Part shown: positions 5,501 through 64,000 of the stretch, one piece after another | Layout of the letters: each line of letters starts with the position of its first letter | Numbering within the stretch: position 1 is the first letter of the stretch | Origin: Isurus oxyrinchus | Lineage: Eukaryota | Length of the DNA: 64,000 bases | Direction of reading: 5' to 3' | NCBI GenBank assembly: GCA_026770705.1 | Contig: JANJGN010000016.1 | Location: 36,208,001-36,272,000 of the forward strand | Translations under genes and position numbers: made by a program | The notes under the pieces: generated by a model | Told to the model about the DNA's origin: nothing | What the model saw: the letters and a program-made list of their open reading frames with translations, nothing else | The model's database searches: none

Positions 5501-8500
5501 AAACTGACACTTCTAGTTGACATTTGCTGGGATTTTGTCAACAGCGTGCCATTCCCAACATCGTAACCACAACAGTCTGCCCTTGCACTCATTTCCCCAT
5601 TTCCCAGCTGATTACAATTAAAATTAGAAGTGCCGGTGGCGTGCATGTAAAACATGTGCAATTCAGTGGTGGAGGAAGATTTTCATTGGTGAAACCTGCC
5701 ATCAGCTGACAATACAGCAGTGGGCTATGACAGAGCCTCCTAGTCAAAGAAGAAAACTCTATCACGGCCACAACTTTCCTTCCCAACTACATTAACATTG
5801 ACATAAGACTTGCGAGCATAAAGATGGCATGGGAGCTTTTCAGAATTAAATTTCACTTATAAATATTTTACATCACATTGGTTTCACTTTACACACGTGT
5901 ACATCATTGTTATTTGTTCAGGATAGCTTAGTCAGAGAGCTAAATATATTGGCATGCCACATCACCACATGTCTGGCAATCATTGATGGTTACAGCGAAG
6001 TTTGGAACATTTCCTTTATTGTGCAAGAAACTTTTTTTTGTTCACCTTTTATTCAATGTTCATGTTATTGTCCAGTACTGACCACTCTGTGGAAATATGG
6101 CTGAACTCACAGCTGTCCCTCCCTTCTGTGCTTTGTAAATGACATTGTCCAAGATCACTCTCAGTGGGGATAATTTTTGTAGGTGAACTAAAAGTCCCGT
6201 AAGGACTCTTCTGCCACGCAATATACTGAGATGGATCCACATTTGGATGGTCCTGACACCACCATTTTCTTTCAGGCCCTTCCTACTTCAGTATTCCATG
6301 CCTCCGACCCTACCCTCTGTCCTCCCCTGGATCCTTCTTCCATCCTTCCATGCCCCTGACCTCATTCCACGACCCCCCTCACCACTAACTCACCCTTACC
6401 GATCCCAAACCTCCATGCAAGCTGTCATGCTCCTGCTCCCCTCCCTTGTGCCGCACAATTCAACAAGGAAACTGCTGTTGGGGAATCGAAATTTCACATC
6501 CTGCCTAATTAAGCACGCCACATTTCCCACTCTTGTGGGCTCCATAAAATCTGATCGTGAACTGGGTGCCACGAGATTCTCATGCACCACTGACATTATC
6601 TTGAAGGTGGGACATAATTTTAAAATGTCTTCTGCTAATAAGTATGCATGACATGCAAATCTATTACAATTATGAACCCGCCACAGGCCATCGTAATGCT
6701 CGACATGCCGCAAACACATCTCTGACTTTACCTCTGTATCTCAGCCCACTGTTGGGAAATCAAAATTTCACATCCTGTCTAATTAAGCGTTGGCACATTT
6801 CCTGCTCTTGTGGGCTCCATAAAATCAATACCCCCAACTCCCCCCCAACTCCCACCCTGCATTGAGTATATTTTATTTAGAGTCTGTGGTAACACCACAA
6901 ATGTAAATTCAATGATTTAAAGCAACAGAACCATAGGGCAGGATTTTCCCTCCATTTCCAGGTCTCGACCCCATGTGGGGGGTAAGCATTCATGGTCTCA
7001 CATTTCAGGGGGCATCCCTTTAATTGGCCTGGAGGTGGGTTTGGTGGTCAATTAGGAGAGGTGGGGACGGAGGCAGGTCTGCTCTTGAGAGGGGCTATTT
7101 AAACAGGTGACACAGCATTTTTGTGGCTGCTGTTTCACTACTGTATTGTTTAGTTGTAAGTTCATAGAATTGGAGAAAATTAGAACATCTCAGAAGAGCT
7201 AAAGGCCTGAAATCCAGGGCAGAACAGCCACCTGAAATGCTGCTGTGGACCTCCTGGAGACCATAAAGGGGAGAAGGAGGGTCCTCTTCCCTCAGGGTGG
7301 CTGGAGGAGGCCACCCACCCAGATAAAGCAAGCCTGGATGGAGATAGCTGACACAGTCAGCAGAAGGAGCCTGGTGTACAGAAATTGGATCCAGTGTTGG
7401 AAGATGTTTAATGACCTTGTTGGATCCTTGTTACTAGTTTAGTTGAACTAATGGATCCAGGTTGCACACTTGTTTTGGGATGACCAAGTTGGTACCATTG
7501 ACATAGCAGATCAGCAGACAGTTCTGAGGGAGAACACGTTCTAATTATTTACAAAGGAACTCAGCAGCTACACTTGTGTGCTAACAATAAAACCCTGTTT
7601 CTACATTACAGACTCTTACTCTAGACTACTCACTTCTGACTACAGACTACTAAGGTAGCCCGCACTACCCTGTTATTTACTCAGAAATATATTTTACAGT
7701 TACAATTACAATTCTTCTCAAAATATCAAATTATTTACACAGATAAGTAATTCACAAATTCAGGTTTTCTGGGGGTTTCCTTATGCGTGTGGAATGCCTC
7801 AGCTCTACAGCTTCAGATGCTTTGTCAGGAACCTGCTTTTCTGGTGTTGTCTGAACATGAGGTTCTTCAGTGGGCACCTGCAAATCTGTTTCCTCAACTC
7901 TTGCAGGTACAGCCGATCCTTCAAACACATCTATATTCTGTTGAGTTCTTTCAACAAGAGATGTTGACATAGTCGTGAACACTGGAGGAATCATTTCCTG
8001 ATACTTTATTTCTCTCCTCCTTATAAGATCTTTATGTCTCCGTGTGATTCGGTCTTCTGCTTTCATGTGGTAAGAAAGAGGCCCAGTGACTGCACTTATT
8101 TCACTTGGTAACCACTTAGGTCCTTCACCAAAATTTTTAACATATATCATCTCTCCTACAGTAAACATTTTTTCCCGACTATGCCAGTCATGTACAATTT
8201 TCTGATCCCCCTGACTCCTTTCCACCTTCCCCCCTAAATTTAGCATTACTAAACTCAATATTTTTCTAAGGCAGCGATTCATCAACAATCCGCAGGTGTG
8301 ATACCTGTTGCCGTGTGAGGGGTGGTTCTATAAAGGAAAAGAGAACATGCTAATTTGGTTGCTATGGAGTATCCAGTTAATTTCTTCATACGATTTTTGA
8401 ATGTTTGAACTGCTCGCTCAGCCAGTCCATTCGAAGAAGGGTGATATGATGAAGTTTGTACATGAGTAGTACTGTTGAGACTGATAAAGCGTTGAAACTC

Positions 8501-11500
8501 AGCACTCGTAAATGAGTTCTGTTGAAGGGTCATGAGGACTCGAAACGTCAACTCTTTTCTTCTCCGCCGATGCTGCCAGACGTGCTAAGTTTTTCCAGGT
8601 AATCCTGTTTTTGACTTGTAAATGCAATGCCATTATCTGTTAAAACCACTTCTGGTAGTCTGTTGATGTCAAAACTTTGACGTAGTTTGTCAATTGTAGC
8701 AGAAGACGTTGGTGACTTTACCTCATATATGTCCATCCATTTTGAGTGAGCATTAACAATAAGGAGAAACATTGTTCCCATAAAAGGCCCCACATAGTCA
8801 ATATGCAATTGCACCCATAGCCTTCCTGGCCACTCCCACAGGTTTAACGGAACTGTTGGAGGTAACTTTTTCACTTGTTGATACCGTATACAACTTTTCA
8901 CTCGGCTGTCTATTTCTCCATCCATCCCAGGCCACCATAGATAGCTGCATGCTATGGTCTTCATTCCAGAAGTACCTGGATGTGCACTATGTAATTCAGA
9001 TAACAAAGGCTTTCGTCCTTTTGGAGGAACAATCACCCTAGCTCCCCACAATAAGATACCATCCTGGCTGGCTATCTCATATCTTCTGTGAAAATACGGT
9101 TTCATTTTGTCAGATTCCTGCTCTTGTGACCATTAATGAAGAATTTGTTCTCATACTTTGGACTTGTCCAATCTCTAATCTGTCTGGCACATACCGGTGA
9201 TGAATCTAAGAAGTTCAATAATAAAACAAATTCTTGAGGAACTGGAACAACCTCATCATTTTCTTTCAAAGGCAAACCACTAAGTGCATCAGCATCTACA
9301 ATCTGATTTCCAGGCCTGTGGATGAATGTATACTCATGCACTGCCAGAATCAACGCCCATCTCTGTGTTCTTGCTGAGGTTATGGGTGGTCTAGCCTTGT
9401 CCTCGCTGAATAATCCTAGCAAAGGCTTGTGGTCCTAAATAATAGTAAAATGATGACCGTGTACATACCGGTGAAATTTCTTGACACCAAAGATGATTGA
9501 CAAGCCTTCTTTCTCTATCTGTGAGCATCCCTTTTCCGCTGTTTTGCGCATTCTTGATACATATCCAATAGGTCATTCTTAGCCATTGTCCATTCATTGG
9601 GAGAGCACTGCTCCCACACCACAAGAAGATGCGTCAGATGTCAGAACAAACTCTTTTCTTTGGTCAACATACACCAATAGGGTGGACGAATGCAACAGTT
9701 GTTTCACCTTTGTGAAAGCTCCTTTCTGTACTGTTTGCCAAGACCACGCTGGTTTTTCTTGAGTAGATAATAGAGGGGTGCCAGTTCTGTTGTCAAATTA
9801 GGCAAAAAGCATCCATAGTAATTGATCATCCCCAAGAATGATTTTAGCTCAGAGGTGTTCCTTGGTGCTGGTGTCTCTCTAATGGCTCTCACTTTTACTT
9901 CAACTAGGTGGAAGCCCTGTGCATCTACCCTATGATCTAAATAGACTACCTCTTTTGCTTGGAACATGCACTTTTCTTTTTTTAAACACATTCCCACCTG
10001 TGAGAAAAGCTTCAAAACTTCTTCCAAGTTTGCCAAATGTTCCTTTTCTGTGAGTCCTGTCACTAGAACATCATTTAAATAACTACAACATGAGGCAATC
10101 CCTGCAGTAAATTTTCCATTGTCCTGTGGAATAAGGCACATGCAGAGGATACACCAAAAGGCAAACGGGTATATTGGTACAACCCTTTGTGTGTATTAAT
10201 TGTGACAAACTTCTGGGAGGCCTTCCCTAACTCCAATTGTTGATAAGCATGGCTCATATCAAGCTTCGTGTAGGCGGTTCCACCTGCCAACTTAGCTTAC
10301 AGGTCTTCAATTTTTGGTATAATGTATTTGTCCAACTTAGCCACTTTACCAACAGTAAATTTGTAGTCTCCACAGATTTGAACGCCTTGGTCAGGTTTAA
10401 GTACGGGGACTATCGGTACTGCCCATTCCGAGAACTGCACAGGAGGAATCACTCCCAGTTTCTCTAATCTGTCCAATTCGGCTTCTACCTTTTCCTGCAT
10501 TGCATATGGTACTGGTCTTGCCTTCATAAATCGGGGGGTAGAGTCTGGATCAACATGAATTTTTGCTCGTAGCCCTTGGACCTTCCCAAGTTCAGCTTGG
10601 AGTACATGCAGGAAGTGAACACTGACATACACAGGATGCATGCCACAGTATCTAGCATGGAACAGTCAGTGGCAATGATGGCACAATGATGGCTGGTGCT
10701 GTCCACCAGCCTTCCAGAATGCCAGCCAAGGGCTGAGGATGTCACCTAGAAGGATGAGGGTGCCACCCCTCATGTGATGTCATATCATCATCCTTGGCTT
10801 CCTTGGCCCCTGTGCATCTGTGCAGCAGGACTCAGCGATGAAAGACTGCCTCTGCAATGATGCAGGTGCAGCAGTCTGGAGAATGTCCCCACAGGCACCG
10901 CCACAGGCATCTCAACTGTGGGCAGAGACAAACGAGTAAGCTGCCTCCACTTCCCCTGAGACCATGAGGAAAGCACTTCAGTGAAGTGGGTGAATGCAGA
11001 GGCCACTGCATTGGGCAGAACATTGAGTGAGTCACTGGGGCGATTCTACCTGTAGCTGTGCACTTTTTTCCTATTTGTAAACATTTGAAACCAGAGGTCT
11101 GAGCCTCCTTTATTTAATAGCAGGGACAAGGAAAGGGGTGTGAAGTTATAAAAGAAAGCAAAGGTTTATCAGCTGTGATGGTGAAATCTCTTGGAGATGT
11201 ACATACTTCATTGGCAGTAAAAGGTTAATTGTTCCAGACTGCACCTTCACTGGGAGTGTTAGCATAGGCAGCTCAGGGTGAGAGCTGTCCATTCGTTCCT
11301 CCTGGGACTGAGGGGTTCATTTGAATCAGATGATCCCTGATGTTAATGGTACCCTGGCAAGATGCTTGAGCCTCGCACTGTGCCCAGCCACATCCCTGCA
11401 CAGCCCATGCACCTCCATGTTCTGCATCATCATCCTCCTTTCACTCCTCCTCTTCCATATCCTGCTTCTCCTCTTCCTCCAATGAGCTGTGTCCTTCCAG

Positions 11501-17500: not shown

Positions 17501-20500
17501 CAGACTCTGTGAGAAGCATGGTCTGTATAATAATACATCATGGAATGAAGCTAATTTTATTATTTTTAATTTGTGCTGTTTCAGTATTTTGTTATCCTAC
17601 TGCTTCAGTGTATTATTCAATTTGTAAATAAACCTAGGCAAATTGATTAGCCTGTATACATTGGTTTGACATTTGTTATTTTCTGCCTAGCAGAAGGGAC
17701 AAGGAGAATGTATTAGACTCTTTCTCAAATGATGGAATTGGTACCATTAAAATTGAATTATTATCCCACACATTGCGTGCATAATGGCGCAGGTTTTTGA
17801 TTTACAGGAGAGTTGGTGTGCTTTTGAAAGCTGCCCTTTTACCATAAACACAAAACGAGAATCTCTGCTGGTTAAAGTATTGTGAAACATACCCCTTTCA
17901 GCATCCACTGGAAGTTTCTAAAGGTTTTTAACCTTATGAGCTATCATCAATAGACAGCCAAAGCAGTGGTGTTCCAAAGAGTTGAGTGTTCTCAGGTTGA
18001 AAAATGAAGAGAGCAAGGGACTTAGACAATTTAAGATTAGCAGAGAGACCAAGGTCAGTTAAAAAAAACAGTAACTTTGAGCAGAGTGTCCAGCCTCCTC
18101 CAAAATAAGCACTCATATTTCATGAAAAGGACTCAGTTTAAAATTTTGTTCTATTAGTTTTAGGGGAAGATATTCCTCCTGACTAACAAGTCTCCTTGGT
18201 ATTATGAATATAGGAAAATCAGATGGAGAGGAGCATAGCCCTGCAAGGGGAACCTGCCTGATTTTCCATTGGATCTGCCTCCAAATTTTGTAATCATTCA
18301 ACTTTTTTTCCTCTCTTGTTAGCTCTTCTTTGTCTGACTATGTCTCACTTCTGCCAAATGGTGAATGCAAGTCAGCCAACTTCAGTATGTTTATTTTTCA
18401 GGTACTGAAGAAGCACATGCTAAACCCAAGATTACGAAGAAGCTCAAAAAGCAGTCAGCAGCTGTCAAATCTGGGACAAAGGTGGGAAAGAAAACAAAAA
18501 CAAAACAAAGACACTGAGTGTGGTTGGGGGTGCGGTGCTTGGCGGTGCGGCGGGGGTGTTGGGGTTGGGGTGTGGAATCCAAACTGCTTCAATTCTACCG
18601 TCATAATTCAATCCAAAAATATGGTTTTCAACATGATCTACTTAACCTATATTGACATTAGGCTGAAAGTATACTTTTCAGACTGTCACAGCTGACAAAT
18701 TCCTTGTTAAAACTCAGTTGTTCAAGACTGAACCACTTCTCTCTTCATATGCAAAGCATTCCATTAGATAATAGCTAGATAGTGCGAATATTAGTAAAAC
18801 AAAATTCAATCCATAATACTATCAGTGAATCAATCCATTAAAAGCTGGAGGGGAAGGATGGATAAGAAGACAGCATATGCTTGGCTTGAATGTAGTCAGG
18901 CTTTTCAATGTTTAGAAATGTTTATACAGAGCAATATCATTTCTCTCAGGAGAATGAAAAAAATTGTGTAACATGAATTACTGTTATTTTGCTCTGTAGG
19001 CAAATTTGTCTGCCATTTTATATGCAGTGTTCCTTTGGTTGTTTTGATTTTGGAATGTGAGAATCCCATGTTGTTTTTTGAATAATGCCATAGGCTCTTT
19101 GTCAACCACCTGAACAGACAATACTTTGATTCAATCTCTCATGCAGCTTTATTAAGCAAAATTGGGCTCACAATGTTAGGGGTAATATATAAACATGGAC
19201 TGAGGATTGGTTAATGACAGAGAGTAGGAATAAATGGGTAATTTTCCTGATTGGCAGGCTCTAACAAGTGGGATACAAAGATCAGTGCTTGAGTCTCAAC
19301 TATTTACTAGATCGATGACTTAGATGAAGGGACAGAGCAAAATGTCAAACCAGGTTTATAAAGTGAGCAGGTGATAAAACTTACTTGGACTGCTGTATGC
19401 CAGTAGATTAGGGGCTGAATTTTGAGGTTGTCAGGCAGGCACAGTGGGTGGGCCCGGGAGCAGCCAGGAAATGTCCCGCTGCCTGCGATCGGCCCCTAAC
19501 CACAATTTATCATCACCTTTTAGCCTATTTTCGATCTTATTTCCCACCACTGTCCCCTCCCCCCACCCCACCTCCACAAGGGCCATCTGTCCCTTGTTCA
19601 TGTTGTTCTTTCCAGAGTGCTTGTCCTGCTATTATCACATTCTGATTTCTTACCTTAATGCCACCATCAATTCCTCCTTTAGCCTGTACCACTGCCATTA
19701 ACACCCCTTTTGTTCTTGACATATTTGTCAATCTCTCCTTTGCCCCCACCTATCACTGGTCTTCTATCCTGCTTCACCTGCTCCACCCACCTTAAACAGT
19801 ATAAATTACATTTTTAGTTCTCTATTGCTCTGAAGAACAGTCATATGGACTCAAAACGTTAATTCTGCTTTTCTCTCCATGGATGCTATTAGACCTGCTG
19901 AGGTTTTCCAGCATTTTCTGTTTTTGTTTCAGATTTCCAGCATCCGCAGTATTTTGCTTTTATCTAAGTGTCTGACTTCGTCATGCTCAGGTGCTCCGCC
20001 TCCATAGGAGTTTAGGATAAATGCAGCTCCGGATCCCTAACTTTAACTGCCAGGTGTTACTGTCATTTCGGGGAGCGTAACACAGCCGACTGAGTCAGCT
20101 CTAAGTGCAGTCACAGCAGCAGTACTTCATCATCCCAAGTATTATGTATCTGTGTCACCATTGATGTAACATTTTGTGCAAGGTTGCGTTAGTTCCGATG
20201 GAGGAGCTTTGCCAGATTGAAGGCCACTGAGGACCGTGCACATGCTCCTGCGTCTTGTAGGGAGCTGTTGCAACTGGCATGTTGGATGGACGTGTGAACA
20301 GGCAGCACTCTCTGATGTCTGATCCTGGGATGCCCTCCTCCAGGCAGCAATGATGCACTGTCATCCAGAAGCTCGTGGGTGAAATTAGAGGAGTAGCTAT
20401 GCTGGTGATCATGCTGGCTCATGGCGGAGAGAGTTGTCCAGGAATATCCTCAGTGCATCTTGTCATCCTCCTGGAATCTGCTGGTAATGAGGTCCTCACA

Positions 20501-32500: not shown

Positions 32501-35500
32501 GTGTTACAGATCATATGTGCAGTAATCTTCAGTATTTTAATCATGCATTTAATTAAAAAACACAAGATATGCAAAAATAATGTTGTGCTGGATTGTATGG
32601 AATGGTATATTCGCTATCTTTGTTTAGGATATGGAGCAGTAACTGAATTAATCTGAAATTTCCTCAGCTTGGAGGTATCATCCTTTTTGTATGCAACCTT
32701 ATTATTCATTAACACCTGCAGAATTTTCTAAGTGGCCTTCATTCTATTTGTTATGCTTTCTGTTTGTGCTCAACAGGAACAAACAGACCTGGAAGCCCAG
32801 CATACGAATTACAATGCTGAACAAACAGATAAAGTAACTAAGGCAGCAATATGGTAAAACACCATTTTTCTTGTTTTTCTTTCCTTGATCACATATTAGC
32901 TTGAAGCTCTCTTCCTCCCCCATTGCTCTGAAAAATGGTGCACTATAGTGGTTTAGTAGCGGCTCATTTTTACCTCACAGCCCCTATAATCCTACAACAG
33001 CTCCATATTTGGCTAAACAATAATAATAATGGAATCCTGGCCATTGTCTATGTACACCAGCTTATTGGAATGCACCAGATGATTCTCCTTATATTCCATA
33101 AGCAGTTTAATATACACTTTATCAGAAGAAGACATAGCCTATAAACATACAGAATTTATTCAACTGGACAGCAAATGAACAGTGCTTATTGCTGCAATTA
33201 CCAATTGTAATGATTTCTACAAATGTACATCAAAACAATAAAATGTGCTTTTCCATACGTATATTGAACCATGAAAACTGACATTCACTTCTTCCATCTT
33301 GAATCACTGCCAGACTCATATGAGCTTGGTTTCAGTTGGCTACAGATTGATTGTTCGCATCTTCCAGCTGCAAATAAAAGACCCAAACTAGAAATTTCCT
33401 GCCACAGAACTGTCAATCAAAAGGATCATAGCTAGTCATTGGCCCTGCTGCTTCTCTCAATTCTCAGACACAGTTCTGTTGAAGGGTCATGAGGACTCGA
33501 AACGTCAACTCTTTTCTTCTCCGCCGATGCTGCCAGATCTGCTGAGTTTTTCCAGGTAATTCTGTTTTTGTCTCAGACACAGCTGTCAGTCAAAATCATC
33601 ACTCTAGGCTGATTCTTTGATTCAAGGAAAAGACTTTAACAGGCACATTCCATTTAATTGCATGGATTGGATGCCTTTTTACAGTCTTTGCCACATGAAC
33701 TTCTTCAATTTCTCCTAGGCCCAGCAAACCCAGAACATGCAGTCACCCTTCAACCTGATCCCGGGCATCTTGGACCTTTAAGAGGTGGATGGCCCTCTGC
33801 TTAATGCAGCACCATGCTCCTTCGCCACATGTCAGAGGCATCATTACTGAAAGTGGGAAGCTTTCCCATGGCCAATAATTGCACACATCTCAGAACATGT
33901 GCTACACCCTCAGCTGCTGCATTATTTAATTCCCAATCAGGGAAAGCAGCAACCTGTTTCAGAGAAGCTGTTTATTTTTGACCTGCAGCCGACGAACTTC
34001 CAAGTTTGACTCCTACATTTGTTTTTCAGGAGGTCCATTCAGATTAAGGGTAAAGGTATCATGTCAGCACTTAACGGTCAGGACAGCCACCCTGCTCAGA
34101 TGGGAAAATCGAGGTTAGTGTATAGATGCTAAGTACTGGATTATATACCCTGCAATGTTTCACAACTTCTCACCTGTATGTACTGTTGGGAAAAAAGTAG
34201 ACGGAAAACAAAACAAGGCTGACTTAACGTATCTCCTAATGGTTGATTACAAACCAGTATCGAAAGAGACTTTGGAGCAGGTTTTCTTTCTTAGCTGTCT
34301 AACAAATAATACATAGAGGCAGATGGAGAAACCATAAAGGCAATAGAACCTATTTGAACATGGTGAAAATTGAATTTTAAAAATCCAGCAGATGTAGCTG
34401 GTGAAAATTGAAGTACCAAAAGTACTAGACCAATTAAATGTTGATGGCTTTCTCAAATAGGCCTTTACACTTTCTCTGTTTTTCGATGTTCAGTTCCTTA
34501 TTGTTACAGTGTGAGGAAAACGAAAAGATTCCACTTGACATTGACGTAATGAACGAGAATCAAAAGGCTCATTCCGGAATGCAAGATGATTGCAACCCTG
34601 AGGTAGGGATTAATGATAACAAGCCCTGGCTCTACATAGAACACCACCTAAATGAATCCATGTGGCATGTTACTCAATTCTTTTAAATCTTTGATGGCGT
34701 TTGAATTTTTGAAGAGGTTAGTGTTTGTACATCGAAAAAAACAATTGTTCTATTTCCTTTTTGTATTTTATATTTGTTCTCACACTTTAAAATTCCCTAC
34801 ACCGTGCTCGGTTTTCTGGGAAAGAGAGCTTCTTCCCTGGTCTCTGTCAATAGTCCAAATCATTGCATTGTCTGAAATGGAAATTCAGCATATGAACCAT
34901 CACAACGGAGATCTGCATCACACTGCTCTGTGAACTTAAACTATGTAGTATATTTTATACAATATAATAAAAAGTAGTTTTATGCTGGCATACATTCCCA
35001 TTGAGTAAGGGTGGGAAATTGTCTTGTGTAGTGTTGCTCCTAGCTAATACTATTTGGATCAAATACTCCTGTGGTAGCAAATTCCACATTCTAAACACTC
35101 TTTGCAAAAGATATTTCTCCTGAATTCCCTATCGGATTTATAGTGACTATCTTACACCTTCTTTGTGGCTCCTAATTCTGCTCTTGCCCACAAGTGAAAA
35201 TGCCTTTTCTATCTCTACTCCATCAAACAAAATATAAAAACTGATAGCAAAAGCTTCTACAAGTATATAAAAGGAAAGAGAGTAGCTAAAGGGAATGTTG
35301 ATCCCTTGGACGACGAGACTGGAGAGTTAATAGTGGGGAACGCAGAAATGGCAGAGATACTTAATCAATATTTTGCCTCAGTTTCACAGTGGAGGACACT
35401 AGTACCACCCCAATAGTAACAGGTAGTGCAGAGGATATGGAGAACGAGGAACTTAGAACCATCAGTAGAGAAAAAGTACTGAGCAAACTATTGGGATTAA

Positions 35501-38500: not shown

Positions 38501-41500
38501 AAAGTATAGTTGCTATTGTAATTAGGAAACACAGCAGCCAATGTTCACAAAGCAATCTTCCACAAACAGCAATGTGTCAACATCCAAATAATTTGTTTTT
38601 TTTAAATAATATTGATTGAGGGATAAATACAGCCCATGGCTTCGGTTGGAGATCCTATGTTCTTCAAAATAATGTCATGGGATCTTTTACTGAGAAAGCA
38701 GACAAGACCTCAGCTTAACATCTCATCTGAAAGATAGGACCTGCAATAGTGCAGCACTTTCAGTACCTTGGTGTCCTATTTCACCCTAATATGTGGTTCC
38801 AGCCATTTCTCCTTAACATCACCAAGACTGCCAATTTCCACTTCCCTAACTTCTCCTGACTCTGCCCCTGCCTCAGGTTATCTGCTGCTGAAACCCTTAT
38901 CCATGCCTTTGATAACTCTAAACTCGATTATTTTAATGCACACCTGGCCAGCTTCCCAAATTCTACCCCCTGTAAACCTGAAGTCATCCAAAGCTCCGCT
39001 GCCCGTACCCTAAGTAGCATCAAATCATGTTCACCCATCATCATCATTGCTGGCTGTCCCTCAATTTAAAGATGGCATTGACTCAGGGTTGTGAGTTTCT
39101 GCCAAGCATCTTCATGCAGCTGAACAGGCTGATTCTCCACCCACAGGACTTTGAGCACATGGGGCAGGACAACCCACTGTTAGTGGGATCCAGAGTGCAG
39201 GATTTGCCTCCTTTTCCCTCCTTCTCTACTACCGCTCTGACTCATCATTAGGACTAGTTGTTTGGTAGCACAGAACTTGGGTATTGCTGAGAAAAGAGAC
39301 TTTTTAGTCGAAGCTTTTCGTCTGGTACGCATCTGGACAATTTGCAAGAAAATACCAATGTCAGGGAAAATAACATACTTATACTGTATGAGAAGAGAGT
39401 GCTGATTGGTTGGCAAGTAGATTCTGATTGGTAGAGGCGTTTCCATGGAGAACGCACCAGTTTATGGTGACTGACAGTTAACTGGTACATTCTCCATAGC
39501 AACACCTCTGCCAATCAGAGCCCAATCAATCAGCACTCTCCTCTCATACAGTATAAATATATTGTTTTCCCTGACATTGGTATTTTCTTGCGGATTTTCC
39601 TGATGAGGCTTCGACAAAAAAAACTTTTCTCAACAATACATCATTAAGACAATGTGACTCAAAGCGTGATGCAGCTTGATGGACAAGTTGTCACCATTTT
39701 GAATGCTTGATAGCAAGCTCCGCCCAGTCATTAATGTCAATTCTGCCGTGCTCCAAGGAGGGTTTCAGAATGTCTTTGAAGCATTTTCTTTGTCCTCCCC
39801 TGGAACACTGGACATTTGAGAGTTGAGCAAACAGGACCTGGCAAGGGAGATGCTCTTCGGCCATCCAGGCACAGTTTCCAGTCCATCGAAGTTGATTTTG
39901 CAGAAGTTTTGCCTAAGTACTTGTGGTGCTGGCTTCAAGGACACTAACATTTTTTCAATGGTCCTCTCACTGAATACAGAGAATGCAATGGAGGCATTGT
40001 TGATGGAATTTCACAAGTGTTCTTATATGTTGCTGATACCCAATCCAGATCTCACACAGTGAAGGAGTGTTGTGGCAACAACTGCTCTGCACACTCAGAC
40101 TCCTGTTGCCTTTGTTGTCAAATACTTGCTGCCATAGTTTGTAGAAGGATGAGCTAGCGCAGCTAATCTGGAGTTGGATTTCCTCCATCACCCATCACCT
40201 TTGTGCTCACAGACCTACAATAGCTCCACAATTTTACAAAAACAGCAAGTGCTGAAAAAACCCATTAGACTTGAAACATTAACTCTGTTTCCCACTTCGC
40301 AGATGCTGCCAGACCTCCTAAGTTTTTCCAACACTTACTATTTTTATTTCAAATTTCCAGCAATTGAAGTATTTTGCATTCATTTAAAATCCTATTCATG
40401 TTTCCAAATCCCTCCATGGCCTCACCCCTTATTATCTTTGCAATTTCCTCTAGCCTTACAACTCTCTGAGATATTTGCACTCATGTAGCTCTGGCCTCTC
40501 GAACATCCCCAATTTTAATCACTCCACCTTTGGTGGACGTGTCTTCAGCTGCCTAGGCCCTAACATCTGGAATTCTGTCTCTAATCTTATCTGCGCTGCT
40601 TCCTTCCTTTAAGATGTTCCGTAAAACCAACCCCTTTGACCAAGCTTTCAGTCATCTGCCCAGCTATTATCCCTTATATGGCTTGGTGTCACATTTTGCT
40701 TTAGAACGCTCCTGTGAAGCACTTGGGATGTTCCATTATATTAAAAGTACTTAGACATACAAGATGTTGCTGTTATAATACTTCACTGGAGTGTCGGCCA
40801 GAATTTTGTGTTCAAATCTCTGAAGAGGGATTGTAATTCACAACCTTCTGGCTCAGATGCAAGCGTGCTAGCCACTGAGCAACGTGTAATCCTAGAAGTT
40901 TATTAATGTCTTCCTGCATTATGTCAAAGTCCTTTCTCTGTATTAATTACACTCCCCACTTTGGTGTCACCCACAAATTTTGAAATTTTACTTCCTATTG
41001 CTTGGCGGCCATTCATGCACACCTTCTTCTGTGCAGCAATTTTCAAGACAGACACCATGGGTGCAGTGGTCTATATGGTTACCATTTATGTGCAGGGAAT
41101 ACTAATGCAGAACTTTCATTCAGGAGATTCAATAGGTGAAATAAAATCAACGGCAGCTGGATTATACACGATTTGCAGAAGGAAACAATTGATGGTCTCA
41201 TTGTATGTCTAAATTTTTCTGACAATACAATTACAAAAATAGAAAAGGTGCTGTTTTACTTGAAATGTTATAATGGGTGGAATATTGTGAACGACTTGAA
41301 AATCTCTGCTTCTCCCTTTGACATGGGATAAATTAATACATATTCTGCTTGCATTTCTGAAAAATAAAATATTCTTTAGAGTGTTGTATGTACTATCTGT
41401 TAAGAGTGATACAATGACTGCAGCAAACATGTAGCGCAGTATTTAATGGAGGCAACGGAAGTCTCAGCCACCAGCTGAAGAGCTGGTGAGAGTGCTGTGT

Positions 41501-47500: not shown

Positions 47501-50500
47501 AGGTGGCGGTGAGCTGCCTTCTTGAACCACTGCAGTCCATGTGGTATGGGTACACCCACAGTGCTGTTAGGAAGGGAGTTCCAGGATATGGACCCAGCGA
47601 CAGTGAAGGAACGGTGATATATTTCCAAGTCAGGATGGTGAGTGGCTTGGAGGGGAACTTACAGGTGCTGGTGTTGCATGTGTCTGCTGCCCTTGTCCTT
47701 CTACATGGTGGCAGTCGTGCATTTGGAAGGTACTGTCTAAGGAGCTTTGGTGGGTTTCTGCAGTGCATCTTGTAGATGGTGCATGTTGTTGCCACTGTGC
47801 ATTGGTGGTGGAGGGTGTGAATGTTTGTGGATGGGGTACCAATCAAGCAGATATAAAAACAAAAAACTGCGGATGCTGGAAATCCAAAACAAAAACAGAA
47901 TTACCTGGAAAAACTCAACAGGTCTGGCAGCATCGGCGGAGAAGAAAAGAGTTGATGTTTCAAGTCCTCATGAATCTTCAACAGAACGAGGTGAATGCAA
48001 GGAGAGGGGTGAAATATAAGCTGGTTTAAGGTGGGGGGGGGGTGTGGGGTGGGGGGGAGGGGGGTGGGGGGAGAAGTGGAGGTGGGGGGGTTGTTAGGAT
48101 AGGAGCAGATAATCAAAAGATGTCACAGACAAAAGAACAAAAGAACACAGAGGTGTTGAAGTTGGTGATTTTATCTAAACGAATGTGCTAATTAAGAATG
48201 GATGGTAGGGCACTCAAGGTATAGCTCTAGTGGGGGTGGGGGGGCATAAAAGATTTCAAAATAATGGAAATAGGTGGGAAAAAAATCTATATAAATTATT
48301 GGAAAAAACAAAAGGAAGGGGGAAGAAACAGAAAGGGGGTGGGGATGGAGGAGGGAGTTCAAGACCTAAAGTTGTTGAATTCAATAGTCAATCCGGAAGG
48401 CTGTAAAGTGCCTAGTCAGAAGATGAGGTGCTGTTCCTCCAGTTTGCGTTGGGCTTCACTGGAACAATGCAGCAAGCCAAGGACAGACATGTGGGCAAGA
48501 GAGCAGGGTGGAGTGTTAAAATGGCAAGCAACAGGGAGGTTTGGGTCATTCTTGCAGACAGACCGCAGGTGTTCTGTAAAGCGGTCGCCCAGTTTACGTT
48601 TGGTCTCTCCAATGTAGAGGAGAACACTTTGCGAGCAACGAATGCAGTAGACTAAGTTGGAGGAAATGCAAGTGAAATGCTGCTTCACTTGAAAGGAGTG
48701 TTTGGGCCCTTGGACGGTGAGGAGAGAGGAAGTGAAGGGGCAGGTAATACATCTTTTGCGTGGGCATGGGGAGGTGCCATAGGTGGGGGTTGAGGAGTAG
48801 GGGGTGATGGAGGAATGGACCAGGGTGTCCCGGAGGGAACGATCCCTACGGAATGCTGCTGGGGGGGTGAAGGGAAGATGTGTTTGGTGGTGGCATCATG
48901 CTGGAGTTGGCGGAAATGGCGGAGGATGATCCTTTGAATGCAGAGGCTGGTGGGGTGATAAGTGAGGACAAGGGAGACCCTATCATGTTTCTGGGAGGGA
49001 GGAGAAGGCATGAGGGCGGATGCGTGGGAGATGGGCCAGACGTGTTTGAGGGCCTTGTCAACGACTGTGGGTGGAAAACCTTGGTTAAGGAAGAAGGAGG
49101 ACATGTCAGAGGAACTGTTTTTGAAGGTAGCATCATCAGAACAGATGCAACGGAGGCGAAGGAACTGAGAGAATGGGATAGAGTCCTTACAGGAAGCGGG
49201 GTGTGAGGAGCTGTAGTCGAGGTAGCTGTGGGAATCGGTAGGCTTGTAATGGATAATGGTGGACAGTCTATCACCAGAGATTGAGACAGAGAGGTCAAGG
49301 AAGGGAAGGGAAGTGTCAGAGATGGACCACGTGAAAATGATGGAGGGGTGGAGATTGGAAGCAAAATTAATAAATTTTTCCAAGTCCTGACGAAAGCATG
49401 AAGCAGCACCGAAGTAATCATCGATATACCGGAGAAAGAGTTGTGGGAGGGGGCCGGAGTAGGACTGGAACAAGGAATGTTCCACATACCCCATAAGGAG
49501 ACAGGCGTAGCTGGGGCCCATGCGGGTACCTATAGCCACACATTTTATTTGGAGGAGGTGAGAGGAGTTGAAGGAGAAATTGTTCAGTGTGAGAACTGAG
49601 GAGAGTAGTGGTGGATGGGGATTGTTCAGGCCTCTGTTCGAGGAAGAAGCTAAGGGCCCTCAGACCATCCTGGTGGGGGATGGAGGTGTAGAGAGATTGG
49701 ATGTCCATGGTGAAGAGGAAGCAGTTGGGGCCAGGGAACTGAAAATTGTTGATGTGATGTAAGGTGTCAGAGGAATCACGGATGTAGGTGGGAAGGGACT
49801 GGACAAGGGGAGAGAGAAGGGAGTCAAGATAACGAGAAATGAGTTCCGTGGGGCAGGAGGAAGCTGACATGATCGGTCTACCGGGACAGTTCTGTTTGTG
49901 GATTTTGGGTAGGAGGTAGAAGCGGGCCGTCCGAGGTTGGGCGACTATCAGGTTGGAAGCTGTGGGAGGAAGATCCCCAGAGGAGATGATGTCAGTGACA
50001 GTCCTGGAAATACTGTTTCCCTGGAAGGGCTGTTTCCAGGACTGTCACTGACTTCACCTCCTCTAGGGATCTTTCTCCCACAGCTTCCAACCTGATAGTC
50101 GCCCAGCCTCGGATGGCCCGCTTCTACCTCCTACCCAAAATCCACAAACAGAGCTGTCCCGGTAGACCAATCGTGTCAGCTTGCTCCTGCCCCACAGATC
50201 TCATTTCTCATTTCTCATTTCTCATTTCTCATTTCTCCCTTTTCTCTCCCCTTGTCCAGTCCCTTCCCACCTACATCCGTGATTCCTCTGACACCTTACG
50301 TCACATCAACAATTTCCAGTTCCCTGGCTCCAACCGCTTCCTCTTCACCATGGACGTCCAATCCCTCTACATCTCCATCCCCCACCAGGATGGTCTGAGG
50401 GCCCTCAGCTTCTTCCTCGAACAGAGGCCCGAACAATCCCCATCCACCACTACTCTCCTCCGTCTGGCCAAACTTGTTCTCACGTTGAACAATTTCTCCT

Positions 50501-53500
50501 TCAACTCCTCTCACTTTCTCCAAATAAAAGGTGTGGCTATGGGTACCCGCATGGGCCCCAGCTATGCCTGTCTCTTTATGGGGTATGTGGAACATTCCTT
50601 GTTGCAGTCCTACCCCGGCCCCCTTCCACAACTTTTTCTCCGGTACATCGATGATTACTTCGGTGCCGCTTCATGCTCTCGTCGGGACTTGGAAAAATTT
50701 ATTAATTTTGCTTCCAATCTCCACCCCTCCATCATTTTCACGTGGTCCATCTCTGACACTTCCCTTCCCTTCCTTGACCTCTCTGTCTCAATCTCTGGTG
50801 ATAGACTGTCCACCAATATCCATTACAAACCCACCGACTCCCACAGCTACCTCGACTACAGCTCCTCACACCCCGCTTCCTGTAAGGACTCCATCCCATT
50901 CTCCCAGTTCCTTCGCCTTCGTCGCATCTGTTCCGATGATGCTACCTTCAAAAACGGTTCCTCTGACATGTTCTCCTTCTTCCTTAACCGAGGTTTTCCA
51001 CCGACGGTCGTTGACAGGGCCCTCAACCGTGTCTGACCCATCTCCCGCACATCCGCTCTCACGCCTTCTCCTCCCTCCCAGAAACATGATAGGGTCCCCC
51101 TTGTCCTCACTTATCACCCCACCAGCCTCCGCATTCAAAGGATCATCCTCCGCCATTTCCGCCAACTCCAGCATGATGCCACCACCAAACACATCTTCCC
51201 TTCACCCGCCACCAGCAGCATTCCGTAGGGATCGTTCCTACGGGACACCCTGGTCCACTCCTCCATCACCCCCTAATCCTCAACCCCCACCTATGGCACC
51301 TCCCCATGCCCACGCAAAAGATGTAACACCTGCCCCTTCACTTCCTCTCTCCTCACTCCAAGGGCCCAAACACTCCTTTCAAGTGAAGCAGCATTTCACT
51401 TGCATTTCCCCCAACTTAGTCTACTGCATTCGTTGCTCCCAATGCGGTCTCCTCTACATTGGAGAGACCAAACATAAACTGGGTGACCGCTTTGCAGAAC
51501 ACCTGCGGTCTGTCTGCAAGAATGACCCAAACCTCCCTATCGCTTGCCATTTTAACACTCCACCCTGCTCTCTTGCCCACATGTCTGTCCTTGGCTTGCT
51601 GCATTGTTCCAGTGAAGCCCAACGCAAACTGGAGGAACAGCACCTCACCTTCTGACTAGGCACTTTACAGCCTTCCGGACTGAACATTGAATTCAACAAC
51701 TTTAGGTCTTGAACTCCCTCCTCCATCCCCACCCCCTTTCTGTTTCTTCCCCCTTCCTTTTGTTTTTTCCAATAATTTATATAGATTTTTTTCCCACCTA
51801 TTGCCATTATTTTGAAATCCTTTATGCCCCCCACCCCCACTAGAGCTATACCTTGAGTGTCCTACTATCCATTCTTAATTAGCACATTCTTTTGGATAAA
51901 ATCACCAACTTCAACACCTCTGTGTTCTTTTGTTCTTTTGTCTGTGACATCTTTTGATTATCTGCTCCTATCACTGCTTGCTTGTCCCTACAACCACACC
52001 ACCCCCCCACTTCTCTCCCCCCACCCAACCCCCCACACCACCACCACCACCCCACCCACCCCCCCCCGCCCCCCCCCCCCGCCCCCACCTTAAACCAGCT
52101 TATATTTCACCCCTCTCCTTGGATTCACCTCGTTCTGTTGAAGGGTCATGAGGACTCGAAACGTCAACACCAATCAAGCAGGCTGCTTTATCCTGGATGG
52201 TGTTAAGCTTCTTGAGTGTTGTTGGAGCTGCACTCATCTCGGCAAGTGGAGGGTATTCCATCACACCCCTGACTTGTGCCTTGTAGATGTGGACAGGCTT
52301 TGGGGAGTCAAGAGGTGAGTTATTCACCACAGAATTCCTAGCTTCTGACCCGCTCTTGTAGCCACATACTTACATGGTTAGTCCAGTTCAGATTCTGTTC
52401 AATGGCAACCCCCAGGATGTTGTTAGTGGGGAATTCAGTGATGATAATGCCATTGAATGTCAAGGGGCAATGCTTAGATTATCTCTTGTTGGAGATGATT
52501 GTTGCCTGTCCCTTGTGTGGTACAATCGTTACTTGTTTTTTATTAATTTACAGAATGTGGACTTCACTGGCTAGGCTAGCATTTATTGCCTGCCCCTAAT
52601 TGCCCATGAGAAGGTGGTGGTGAACTGCGTTCTTGAACTGCTGCAGTCCCTGTGTTGTAGGTACACCCATCATGCTATTACTTGCTACTTGTCAGCCCAG
52701 GCCTGGAAATTGTCCAGGTCTTGCTGCATTTGGACATGGAGGGCTTCAGTATCTGAGGAATCACGAATGGTGCTGAACATTGTGCAATCATCAGCGAACA
52801 TCCTCACTTCTGACCTTATGGTGAAGGGAAAATCGTTGATGAAGCAGCTGAAAATGGTTAGGCATAGGACACTACCCTGAGGAACATCTGAAGTGATTTC
52901 CTGGAACTGACCACCACCATCTTCCTTTGTGCTAGGTATGACTCCAACCAACAGAGAGTTTTCCTCCTGCTTCCCAAAGACCCGAATTTTGCTAGGGCTC
53001 CTTGATGCCACACTCATGTCAAGGGCAGTCACTCTTACCTCACCTTAGAGTTCAGATCTTTTGTCCATTTTTGGACCAAGGCTGTAATGCGGTCAGGAGC
53101 TGAGTGGCCCTGGCGGAACCCAATCTGAGCATCAGTGGCCAGGTTATTGCTAAGCAAGTGTCTCTTGATAGCACTGTTGATGACCCCTTCCATCACTTTA
53201 CTGATGATCGACAGTAGACTGATGGGGCGGTAGTTGGCTGGGTTGGATTTGTCCTGCTTTTTGTGTGACATACCTGGGCAATTTTCCACATTTCCAGGTA
53301 GATGCCAGTGTTATAGCATTGGTGCACAAGTTGAACAGGATTGGAGCTACGACAGACCCCTGGGGTAGCCCATTTGTCTATTTCCTAGTCAGACACTAGT
53401 CTTTTCACCCACACTGTTTGTCCCAGAGTAGTTGTTGAATGCTGTCAGTAACCCTGGGGAGGGAGAATTCCTGAAATTTTGATGAATAGGCCAATGTGCC

Positions 53501-56500: not shown

Positions 56501-59500
56501 ATACTGGGATAGGTGGGGAGCAGAGTGTTGTTCAAGTTGGCTATGTAAAGCCTCTGAAACTTACCTTAGAGTAGTGTTACAGCTGATTTTGAAACTTCGG
56601 CCACTTTTTTACATTGATATTTTACCAAGTAATGTTGCAATGATCCACTTTAGCTTTTGGGACAATTAAATCTTAAATATTCACTGCACCACCTGTAACA
56701 TTACTGGGTGCCAGGAATTAATAGATGAATTTTCTCGTTTGTATATTATTTCAATGCAGCCACCTAATAATGGCTGGTCATTTATTTGTCTAAGGAGGCA
56801 TGATTTCTTTGTCAGAAGTTATGGGAAAATGGGCTAAATAATGGACATGAAATTAAACAAGTGAGTGTGAGGTGCTGCATTCGGTTAAAAAAAACAACAG
56901 CGGTAATTTGTTTGCAAGTAGGCTTGGTGCTATGGAGGTGTAGTAGGATTTGGAGGTACAAGTAAAAAATCAATTTAAAAAAACTAATGGCCAGGATTTT
57001 ACAGCCCCTCCCACCCGGCGGGATATTACGGCCCCGTCGAACTGAATGGAGATTTAAATGGCTCGCCGCATCCATCGGGGGAGGCTTTATTGATAGGGGG
57101 GGTGATGATGGTGCAGTGATAATGTTCCTAGCTTTGTCATCCAGTGACTTAGGCCAATGCCTGGGGACATGGGTTCAAATCTCAACGTGGCAGCTGGCAG
57201 AATTTAAATTCAATTTAAAAAAAAATCTGGAATAGAAAGTTAGTCTCAGTATTGGTAACCATGCAGCTATCTTTGATTGTTGTAAAAACACATCAGGTTC
57301 ACTAATGAAGAGGAATCGTATGGACTTGAAACTTTTCCTATAGCAGGCGGGCTGGGTGGGAATGGGCGGGGGCAGTCATGGAGCCGATTGCAGCCCACAA
57401 TTGGCTGTGCACTGCCATTGTATCAGGCAAGCCAATTAAGGCCTGCCCAGTGTAATACACGGCCGGTAGCACTCGGCGCTCGCTGTGCCAGCGGGGGGAG
57501 GAGGGAGAGCCGGGGCCATGTGCGTGAAAGAGCGCAGCAATCTCCCTGAGGCACGGATCTGCCTCAGGGAGATTGAAAGGATATTAAAAGGATTGAGTAA
57601 ATCAATTAAAAATTTATTTAAATGTGTCCCCTCATGTGACTGTGTCACATAAGTTGGGACATGTATTCAAATTAATGAAAATGTATTTAATTTTTAATAA
57701 AAGGTTTAGGAAACCTCATCCCAACCGTCGATGAGGTTTCCTGAAAAATACGAAGGCCATTTGAGCTTTTCGTCTGCTCGCCAACCTTAAGTTTGGACGG
57801 GCAACGTTCTTAAGTGGTTTAATTCATTTCTTAATGGCCTTAATAGTCTATTGACATTTCGGGGGGGTGTACACAGCGTACTCTGGCATGCGCCTGCCAA
57901 ACGAAATATCGCGATGGTGCATGATGACATTGGGACGCACACCTGATGTCATCGCGCGATGTTTTACGCATCGGCCTGCCGGGCCTACCCCCACACACTG
58001 ACCGGAAAATTCTGCCCTCTGTTTCTGTCCCCAATGAGGCTGCCAGACCTGTTGAGTTTTTCCAGCATTTTCTCTTTTTATTTCTAGTTCACTAATGCCC
58101 TTCAGGGAAGGAAATCTGCCATCCTACATGGGCTGCCAGACTCTCAGCAATGTGGTTGACTCTGAAATGGCCTAGCAAGCCACTCAATTCAAGGGTAATT
58201 AGGGATTGGCAACAGATGCTGGCCCTGTCAGTGATGCCCACATCCTATGAAAGAATTAAAACAATCTCAAGAGGTATAACCATGAGAGCCAAGACGTGGA
58301 AATGAATCTATATAAAGCCTCGTAAATAATATCAGTTAGAGCACTATGAGCAGCATTGAACTACATGACAATTGATACTTTAGGAAAGGTACACCTGAAA
58401 TTCAGGAGGATGAATAAATAAAAGTACAAAAAGAGACTTGAAAATGTGTTTTTCTTTCTTTGAAACGGATTGTGAGAAGATGATATAAAATAATTTGAAA
58501 TTATGAAAAGGTGAGATAAAATACCAGAGTAGACCTTCTCCAGTAGCTGTGGGGTCAAGAACAAGGTGCCATAGATAAAAGGTTAAATGTAAGGGATTTA
58601 GAACAGAGGCCAGGAGAAAGCATTTTACACAGGCAGTTATAGGGCTGTAGAATTCATTTTGATGATTAGTTTTTGAGGCAGAAACTAAATCATTATTCAA
58701 AATATAGCTGGAGGGGTAGACAAAAGAAAATGTATTGAATGGCTAGGGGAATGGCTAAGTGTAAACAGAACAATTTTCTCACATGGAGGGTAAGTGAGGA
58801 CACAATCTAGTTAGACTGATTGGCTTTGAATTCATGGGCTACATTTCCCCCCATGGGGGCGGTTGTGCGGGGGTGGGCAGGTGCAAGCACAAACCCGATC
58901 AGCACCCCCGATCGTGCCACTATTTTACATGGGTGGGCCAATTAAGGCCCGCCCAGCTTGATGCTCACCCGGAAGCACTGAGCGCTCCCTTTGCAGTGGG
59001 GGAGGGGGATTCCCTCAATCGGGAGTGCGCTCTTTTGCACACATGCATGCGAAAGAGGGCAGAAATCTCGCTGAGACACAGAGGTAGGGCGATCAGTTTT
59101 AGATTTTAAAATTTAAATAAAGGAAAAAAAAACTTTTAAAACATGTCCCCTCATGTGACAGTGTCACATGAGCTGGGACATCTCAATGAATTTTAAAAAT
59201 AATTTTTATAGAATTTTAAAACCCTTCATGAAACCTCATCCCGCCCGTGGATGAGTTTTCATGAAAAATGCGAAGGCCGCCTGGGCTCCTTGCCTGCTGC
59301 TAACCTGAAGGTTTGACGGACAGCTCATTTGACTGTTCTAATTAGTTTTTAACAGGCCTTTGACAGTTCAACGGGCGCGCAGCAAACTCGGATGTGCTCC
59401 CGCCGAACTGAAAATGCAAAGGACGTGCGGTAACGTTGGGACACTCGCCTGATGTCACCCCGCATCAATTTATGCGTCAGCGAGCACCGCCACCCACCCC

Positions 59501-62676: not shown

Positions 62677-62790
62677 AGACAAATGCAAAATACTGAAAGT
62701 GCTGGAAATCGAAAATAAAAACAGAAAATACTGGAAATACACAGCAGGTCAGACAGTATCTGTGGAGAGATAAACAGAGGATGGAACCTT
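62677..62790 (-). mobile_element. Penelope-like terminal fragment
   Basis: Similar to 47858-47950. Confidence 0.65.
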
Positions 62791-63169: not shown

Positions 63170-64000
63170 GGACACTGACCTTCCCAGCATTCTCCAACAA
63201 AGCAAGCCTCATGTCAAAACCCTTTGTAGCTCCCCTCATTCCTGTCCCTGCAGGAACCTCACCCCCCTGGTATGGTAGACTATCTCTCTAGTGCCAGGGT
63301 CAAGGATGTCACTGAGCAGCTGCGGGACATTCTGAAGGGGGAGGGTGATGGTCCATGATCAGAGGATTATTTAAATGATGATATATTGGGAAATGTGGAT
63401 GTACAAAGGGATCTGGGTGTTCTTGTACACCAGTCAATGAAAGTAAATAGGCAGGTGCAGCAAACAATTAGGAAGGCAAATGTTGGCCTTCATTGCAAGA
63501 GGATTTGAGTTCAGGAGTAGGGATGTCTTACTGCAGTTATACAGGGCCTTGGTGAGACAACACCTGGAGTATTGCATGCAGTTTTGGTCTCCCTACTTAA
63601 GAAATGATATACTTGTCATAAAGGGAGTGCAGTGAAGGTTCACTAGGCTGATAGCGGAGATGGCAGGACTGTCGTAAGAGGAGAGATTGGTTCAACTGGG
63701 TCTGTATTCACTAGAGTTTAGAAGAATGAGAGGGGATCTGATTGAAACATATAAAATTCTAACAGGGCTAGACGGATGCAGGGAGGATGTTTCCCCTTGT
63801 TGGGGAGTCTAGAACCAGGGGCTACAGCCTTAGGATATGGGGCAGGCCATTTAGGACTGAGATGAGGAAAGATTTCTTCACTCAGAGGGTGGTTAACCTA
63901 TGGAATTCTCTACCACAGAAGACTGTGGAGATCAGGTCACTGAGTATATTCAAGAAAGAAATTGATAAATTTTTGGATATTAAGGGCATCAAGGGGTATG
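63170..64000 (+). mobile_element. CR1 LINE fragment running off the window
   Basis: Homologous to 36330-36950 (LYRALVRQHLEYC..., [14 protein letters not shown]). Confidence 0.88.

Follow-up and report, generated by a model that had tools for sequence, protein, structure and literature searches.

Short hammerhead-bearing copies of a Penelope-like element terminus in Isurus oxyrinchus share a sharp 5' limit

Introduction

What sets the ends of a solitary hammerhead motif that sits in a genome as a short insertion of its own? In a 64,000-nt stretch of Isurus oxyrinchus DNA (assembly GCA_026770705.1, contig JANJGN010000016.1, positions 36,208,001 to 36,272,000 of the forward strand; called the window below), two 99-nt units at separate sites carry such a motif together with part of the terminus of a Penelope-like element (PLE), and they start and stop at the same element positions. 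We call these short copies stubs. Their matching ends had been taken, in an initial annotation made from the window's letters, to argue against random truncation and for either a tiny non-autonomous element or a fixed abortive product. The coordinates of the stubs, of their parent element and of related copies are collected in Table 1.

Table 1. Positions in the window of the stubs, the parent PLE and related features
Feature	Position	Strand	Remarks
Stub 1	8515..8613	+	minimal hammerhead motif + 64 nt, up to putative first RT start site
Stub 1, left TSD	8504..8514	+	11 bp, one mismatch against right copy
Stub 1, right TSD	8614..8624	+	pairs with 8504-8514
Minimal type I hammerhead of stub 1	8515..8553	+	predicted cut after 8549
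Gypsy integrase region broken by stub 1	8300..9132	-	domain matches on either side
Older-subfamily terminus	19785..19965	+	extends upstream of hammerhead; TATAAAT at 19800
Stub 2	33472..33570	+	first two letters shared with its own TSD
Stub 2, left TSD	33462..33473	+	12 bp, exact
Stub 2, right TSD	33571..33582	+	pairs with 33462-33473
Old stub	40250..40382	+	starts at hammerhead edge, ends at long-tail site; no TSD recovered
Parent, left TSD	47838..47850	+	13 bp, exact; right copy 52169-52181
Parent, left arm	47851..50011	-	5'-truncated RT, GIY-YIG, 3' UTR, hammerhead, both terminal sites
Tail of parent left arm	47851..47889	-	39 nt from stubs' 3' end to 3' end of the long copy
Parent, right arm	50026..52168	+	5'-truncated RT, Cys-rich linker CPRKRCNTC, GIY-YIG, 3' UTR, hammerhead
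TATA-like box	52101..52108	+	30 nt before the first base of the stubs; matches weakly (TATATTTC); putative function
Stub-start boundary	52129..52135	+	family majority YAG-TTC, A at 52131, rare C here; fits an initiator, also a splice acceptor
Stub 3, older subfamily	57308..58086	+	exact 11-bp TSD 57297-57307/58087-58097
Old fragment	62677..62783	-	starts near cleavage site, ends at long-tail site; no TSD

The young stubs and their parent element

Both 99-nt units are present, identical at 95 of 99 positions (four differences), and each has a separate target-site duplication (TSD), of 11 bp with one mismatch for stub 1 and of 12 bp without mismatch for stub 2. The opening AG of stub 2 is also the closing two letters of its TSD, leaving its 5' end ambiguous by 2 nt; its 3' end is ambiguous by 1 nt. 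One unit was said to split a Gypsy integrase, and stub 1 does so: minus-strand matches to Integrase_H2C2 (E=2.4e-11) and rve (E=1.7e-4) lie on one side of it and integrase-like sequence (rve_3, E=0.0011) on the other. The proposed make-up of the unit, a hammerhead plus the terminus of the Penelope copy at 47851-52168, agrees with the matches of the stubs to both arms of that copy (98 nt at 92-94% identity to the left arm, 37 out of 37 nt to the right arm). The ends, TSDs and parentage of the stubs are observed. A 23-nt hammerhead pattern, searched with at most three mismatches, has three matches in the window and none in 100 shuffles. The stubs also contain a donor-like CAG/GTAAT (8596-8604 and 33553-33561), which with the YAG at their start would bound an exon of ~82 nt and which is not in the older-subfamily copies. 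Reading a stub as the start of the PLE ORF gave no convincing match among 57 homologues, the best one (E 0.009) lying on the wrong strand.

The description of the parent holds for its terminus, which matches the stubs, but not for its overall form: it is a head-to-head pair of 5'-truncated arms, ~91% identical, enclosed within one TSD, and the stubs' end is matched by the end of neither arm. One of them, the left arm, extends 39 nt beyond the 3' end of the stubs, and the right arm terminates 3 nt past the predicted cut site (52166-52168), which adds a third 3' end to the two tail sites. The parent matches RVT_1 (E=3.1e-7) and GIY-YIG (E=1.9e-4 and 3.1e-4, slightly short of the Pfam cut-off), and both arms align with full-length RT + GIY-YIG proteins, the closest of the 57 homologues being a bamboo shark protein (62% identity). 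The linker motif of the right arm has a similar counterpart in the homologues. A Cys-rich linker is described as the defining feature of Neptune, shared with Nematis (PMC3846280, in the part available), and the motif points to a placement of the parent in the Neptune clade of EN+ PLEs. Both arms carry a C (52131 and 47988) at a position where ~99% of the family depth is A, so both derive from one variant source copy. The inverted parent sits within another repeat (47479-47850 and 52171-52348), of which an uninterrupted relative is found at 28321-28833 (minus strand).

The hammerhead motif lies inside the unit

The motif of stub 1 has a stem I of AGUU/AACU, a stem II of five pairs (GGGUC/GACUC), the core CUGUUGA (A6U), an extra A after A9 and GAAAC-GUC with a palindromic ACGU in place of stem III, with no stem III loop. 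It shares the traits of the minimal type I PLE motif in the available part of PMC4209133 (short helix I, a helix II with G10.1-C11.1, an extra base after A9, palindromic 15.2-16.2), an architecture that is expected there to need a dimer. In the family majority and in each of the four young copies, however, CUGUUGA stands in place of the canonical core CUGANGA: U is the majority letter at position 6 in the DNA runs (among the variants listed, C alone is at 4-7%), and older-subfamily copies retain A6. According to the excerpts of PMC3088659 and PMC7151607, cleavage in Mg2+ is poor for A6C cores, natural as well as engineered; these data concern A6C and not the A6U seen here. Rfam gave no hammerhead match at the gathering threshold over the window and nothing relevant at E<=10 around unit 1.

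The predicted cut falls after nt 35 of 99, which rules out hammerhead cleavage as the source of the stub ends. With the cleavage site lying within the unit and A6U in the core, self-cleavage is not what defines the unit. The hammerhead fold is weak (-5.9 kcal/mol). As for the overall RNA fold of the 99-mers, a candidate that we dropped, 186-194 out of 200 shuffles fold equally well or better. Short head-to-tail repeats of the ~37-41-nt hammerhead alone, with joints from 52166-52169 to 52132-52137, were observed in contigs of two of the sequencing runs described below (X1 and X4); the commonest joint has a depth of 180 and 280, and such repeats could form the dimer that the motif needs.

The 3' end coincides with a putative RT start site

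The 3' end of the stubs is unremarkable. In the window, three stubs end at or near a first site and four copies end ~39 nt further. In the Anolis element PAc, RT has two internal start sites, which bound an optional tail of 30-40 bp and are found 111-118 nt inside the ORF, close to the 5' end of a unit transcript; insertion is unimpaired in hammerhead mutants (PMC11167929, available sections). The stubs have the corresponding traits of PLE insertion products, namely pseudo-LTR (pLTR) sequence, a TSD and a 3' end at either of two sites separated by 30-40 nt. Since priming at one site gives every copy the same 3' end, the shared 3' end is no argument for a separate element. The stubs behave like ordinary PLE insertions for which the priming site is known, but their 5' limit is unusually sharp.

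Other terminus copies in the window

The sharp 5' limit recurs in older material. Stub 3 starts ~6 nt inside the hammerhead edge and ends ~4-5 nt beyond the stubs' 3' site, and its hammerhead is split by an unrelated GC-rich repeat of ~680 bp (~57334-58016, similar to 58937-59360). Its TSD is unlikely to be a chance match, as none of ~300 random stretch pairs shares an 11-mer (pairs less than 200 bp apart were skipped). The 3' half of stub 3 with its flank is part of a 169-bp inverted duplicate (56156-56324 and 58000-58168, 98% identical), either a local rearrangement or an assembly feature. For the fragment at 62677-62783 the upstream half of the hammerhead was not found within 800 nt, and the fragment may be a run-off product of a cleaved RNA, or a deletion.

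No convincing TSD was found for the old copies at 19829, 40250 and 62677, and tests for homology upstream of the edge gave mixed results for two of them: the copy at 19829 failed a first test (score 25 against a shuffle maximum of 30) and passed a narrower one, in which 6 out of 1000 shuffles reached it, and the copy at 40250 was marginally above the shuffles in one test (28 against 25) and not in a second, where 951 out of 1000 reached it. Out of seven independent terminus insertions in the window (a count that leaves out the local inverted duplicate 56156-56324), four start within ~7 nt of the edge, and they belong to more than one subfamily. Apart from the PLE copies, the window has a 422-codon open frame at 35643-36911 (plus strand; RVT_1, E=3.4e-26); this is a fragment of LINE type and is related to 23045-23644 and 63404-63976.

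5' junctions pile up at the hammerhead edge

We aligned the contigs of four out of 24 sequencing runs to positions 52088-52207, i.e. the parent terminus plus 43 nt upstream. X1 and X4 are from one sample of organism A, which may be the source of the window; X14 is from organism B; X15 is from organism A and is guessed to be RNA. Among the partly aligned contigs, loose ends directly before 52132 were found in 213 out of 1089 (X1), 204 out of 716 (X4), 184 out of 906 (X14) and 26 out of 91 (X15). These counts come from the six best-supported rows of each run, beyond which there are 235 further rows; from the lowest of the six, any position beyond them should have at most 10 (X1), 24 (X4), 7 (X14) or 4 (X15) junctions. 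The other such row inside the element, among the best-supported ones, is at 52116 (26 and 24 contigs), where the clipped letters are element letters, an indel artefact.

The letters clipped at 52132 agree poorly with each other (0.36-0.42, as against 0.61-0.98 in the other best-supported rows). In simulation, unrelated flanks give 0.33-0.41, and the observed values correspond to at most ~20% of shared sequence (agreement being taken as the share of letters that match the column majority). The clipped consensus in X1 and X14 resembles the upstream letters of a sister subfamily, so a minority of the peak is probably made of long copies. The three DNA runs show a 3.5-13-fold increase of summed contig depth at the edge, a ratio that is not a copy number; the 67-100-fold rise in X15 is not evidence, as contigs show neither the start nor the level of a transcript and one abundant host transcript could explain it.

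Two properties of the count bear on its resolution: the reference has the rare C at 52131 (the family has A in 1.96M out of 1.98M in X1), so that ends lying a few nt upstream are counted at 52132, and those deeper than a few nt inside the hammerhead are invisible in it. Within this resolution, the pile-up of 5' ends is observed, and the 5' end of the stubs is not random. Over many copies the 5' end is fixed in the contigs of four runs, at the hammerhead edge, and the 3' end is fixed within the window, a trait that an independent non-autonomous family would also have. The case against random truncation is supported for the 5' end, with a sharp boundary in the runs of two organisms and its recurrence in older subfamilies, and the shared 3' end, on which it had also relied, counts little. 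Related DNA was absent from viral contigs and from metagenome contigs (two patterns), and a single GTDB match of 22 nt was taken as chance. For 32800-34300, the region around stub 2, the listing of runs had no RNA run, a negative that carries no meaning for expression.

A run-off cDNA as the proposed source of the stubs

Which process would fix the 5' end? We infer, with a probability of about one half, that the stubs are run-off (strong-stop-like) cDNAs made from an RNA that starts at the A of AGUUCUG, just before the hammerhead. The PLE RT/GIY-YIG protein would nick the target DNA, synthesis would be primed at an internal start site ~99 nt (or ~138 nt) downstream of the first base of the RNA, and the cDNA would be extended to the 5' end of the RNA and then integrated at the target. 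With transcription starting at this A, the RT start site would lie 99 nt from the 5' end, so that a run-off cDNA would have both ends fixed. The first base would be set by a TATA/initiator-type promoter in the pLTR, and the template could be the element mRNA or RNA transcribed from any truncated copy in which the upstream promoter is retained. The hammerhead would be a passenger, not used for cutting the stubs out.

Consensus TATA and initiator motifs are the basis for the promoter comparison. The weak TATA-like box of the parent (Table 1) has a counterpart in an older copy, TATAAAT ~26 nt before the equivalent base, and in the sister subfamily the spacing of the box is kept within 1 nt, though its letters differ. 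The first base of stub 1 is exactly the A in question and lies outside the TSD. A rotifer pLTR is described as having TATA, 20 bp and Inr (PMC3846280, in part), and transcription of PLEs from the pLTR is reported in the available sections of PMC2377424, PMC8557442 and PMC6765202. The stubs are without the TATA-like box that is present upstream in the long copies, and because of this loss they would mostly be dead ends.

Several observations count against a run-off origin. The TATA match is weak. The same letters can also be read as a branch point, a pyrimidine tract (20 out of 25) and a YAG acceptor, and in the available part of PMC4209133 an intron of D. virilis Penelope ends at helix I; that element starts its transcription ~120 nt further upstream and has an internal promoter (PMC2377424, in part). 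Stub 3 starts ~6 nt late. An extra G derived from a cap is not seen in stub 2 and is ambiguous in stub 1.

Of the two options put forward in the initial annotation, the fixed abortive product fits better; an element of its own is disfavoured by the lack of a TATA-like box, by the lack of a diagnostic change in the two young stubs compared, and by the presence of several subfamilies among the stubs. A bolder version, which we consider unlikely, has the stubs as failed intermediates of a retrovirus-like strand transfer in PLEs. Transcription would start at the same A, the downstream hammerhead would end the RNA at nt 35 of the same sequence, creating a terminal redundancy (R), RT would be primed internally close to the 5' end, and the ~99-nt cDNA would normally jump via R to the 3' terminus of this RNA and be extended into a long copy; a stub would be integrated when the jump fails. 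If true, strand transfer would give the PLE hammerhead a role, and would offer a route to pLTR and tandem formation.

Competing explanations for the 5' edge

The stubs could instead belong to an independent, SINE-like non-autonomous family that has an internal promoter, is transcribed from its own first base and is re-mobilised in trans by the PLE protein. The depth step suggests that stubs are more numerous than long copies, in D. virilis Penelope a promoter lies internally, downstream of the start site (PMC2377424, in part), a rotifer pLTR sequence is enough for mobilisation in trans (PMC3846280, in part), and non-autonomous PLE derivatives are known (PMC8557442 and bioRxiv 10.64898/2026.07.22.740005, both in part). 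Against such a family, comparison of just two young stubs with the two arms gives no solo-specific diagnostic change: out of six positions at which both stubs differ from the left arm, four agree with the right arm, one with the family majority and one with the copy at 19829. The stubs moreover carry the sequence of several subfamilies and end at either 3' site. We regard a SINE-like family as unlikely.

Less probable again is a stop or resolution on a longer RNA, in which a hammerhead that is dimerised or bound by protein makes RT stall, or the intermediate is cut by GIY-YIG at this sequence. The edge is indeed the first base of stem I, and for PAc the hammerhead is reported to fold only when protein-bound and the endonuclease to cut its own ORF-pLTR junction (PMC11167929, available sections). 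The weak fold (-5.9 kcal/mol), and the 99-mers folding worse than most shuffles, speak against a structural stop. Moreover, from the general behaviour of RTs, a structural block would be expected at the 3' side of the fold and not once the whole fold has been copied.

We give a still lower probability to the edge being the 3' splice acceptor of a pLTR intron, with stubs made from spliced or splicing-derived RNA. The family has YAG/TTCTG after a pyrimidine-rich stretch, with a branch-point-like pentamer at -30, and the published parallels are the D. virilis Penelope intron ending at helix I (PMC4209133, in part) and a 5' UTR intron common with Chlamys-3 (PMC8557442, in part). Nevertheless, the AG itself is inside stub 1 and outside its TSD, neither stub is preceded by first-exon sequence, and the best donor in 51300-52131 and the matching part of the left arm scores 6/9.

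Ordinary random 5' truncation, with ends matching by chance or microhomology, is already largely refuted and very improbable: most PLE copies are 5'-truncated (PMC8557442, in part), lone hammerhead motifs have been read as truncated PLEs (PMC4209133, in part), the AG of stub 2 overlaps its TSD and at most ~200 other loose ends of X1 are scattered over rows beyond the best six, but one position has ~20 times the junctions of any of these in X1 and X14 (a bound from the best six rows), depth steps within a few bases and the edge recurs in older subfamilies.

Implications

When a product is abundant and its 5' end is fixed, that end locates a transcription start or else a reaction stop with a precision of a few bases, and a direct prediction follows, both for CAGE data and for the in vitro system already published. 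If the run-off reading is true, it exposes a step in the self-copying of PLEs in which the RNA is copied from near its start. Many lone minimal hammerheads in shark-like genomes may be one defined insertion product and not random debris, which matters for repeat annotation and for ribozyme counts. We found no description of a fixed 5' end of PLE stubs in the literature searched, mostly outside subscription papers, and a term search of a shark repeat preprint returned no occurrences; Fig. S2 of PMC11167929, listed in its available part as showing the genomic ends of PAc copies, may bear on novelty.

Comparison with known systems

Minus-strand strong-stop DNA of LTR retroelements is a short, fixed-length cDNA that extends from an internal site of priming up to the 5' end of the RNA. 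The likeness to the stubs is a functional analogy only: strong-stop DNA is tRNA-primed, whereas priming at nicked target DNA and integration with a TSD are proposed here.

Animal non-LTR retrozymes, as described in the available parts of PMC7229834 and bioRxiv 10.64898/2026.07.22.740005, are like the stubs short and non-coding, have a type I hammerhead and are related to PLE pLTRs, and monomers occur. Retrozymes are, however, tandem units (at least two hammerhead units) processed from cut to cut into circular RNA, whereas the stubs are single and TSD-bounded, with ends off the cut site; there is no array in the window, and tandem joints of ~40 nt are rare in the run contigs. We therefore rejected a classification of the stubs as retrozymes. 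The SINE-like hammerhead repeats of Schistosoma (PMC6765202, in part) resemble the stubs as short, retroposed and interspersed units with a hammerhead, of which single copies lose the promoter, but they differ in being Pol III-driven tandem units released by self-cleavage, and their sequence is unrelated.

Non-autonomous Chlamys PLEs, e.g. MRC1 (PMC8557442), are also non-coding and have their 3' end in common with an autonomous PLE; they differ in having pLTRs, head-to-tail arrays and families of their own, and PLEs of the Naiad/Chlamys type are without canonical hammerheads in the available part of that paper. The closest likeness in form is with the 5'-truncated insertions and solo pLTR or tail copies of EN+ PLEs, PAc in particular (PMC11167929, available sections), which share with the window's copies a pLTR that contains a minimal hammerhead, a pair of 3' ends separated by 30-40 nt, long TSDs, truncated arms in inverted arrangement, RT with a C-terminal GIY-YIG and a Cys-rich linker. 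Unlike the EN+ PLE copies described in those sections, whose 5' ends are variably truncated, the stubs have a sharp modal 5' end, a product of ~99 or 138 nt and the A6U core.
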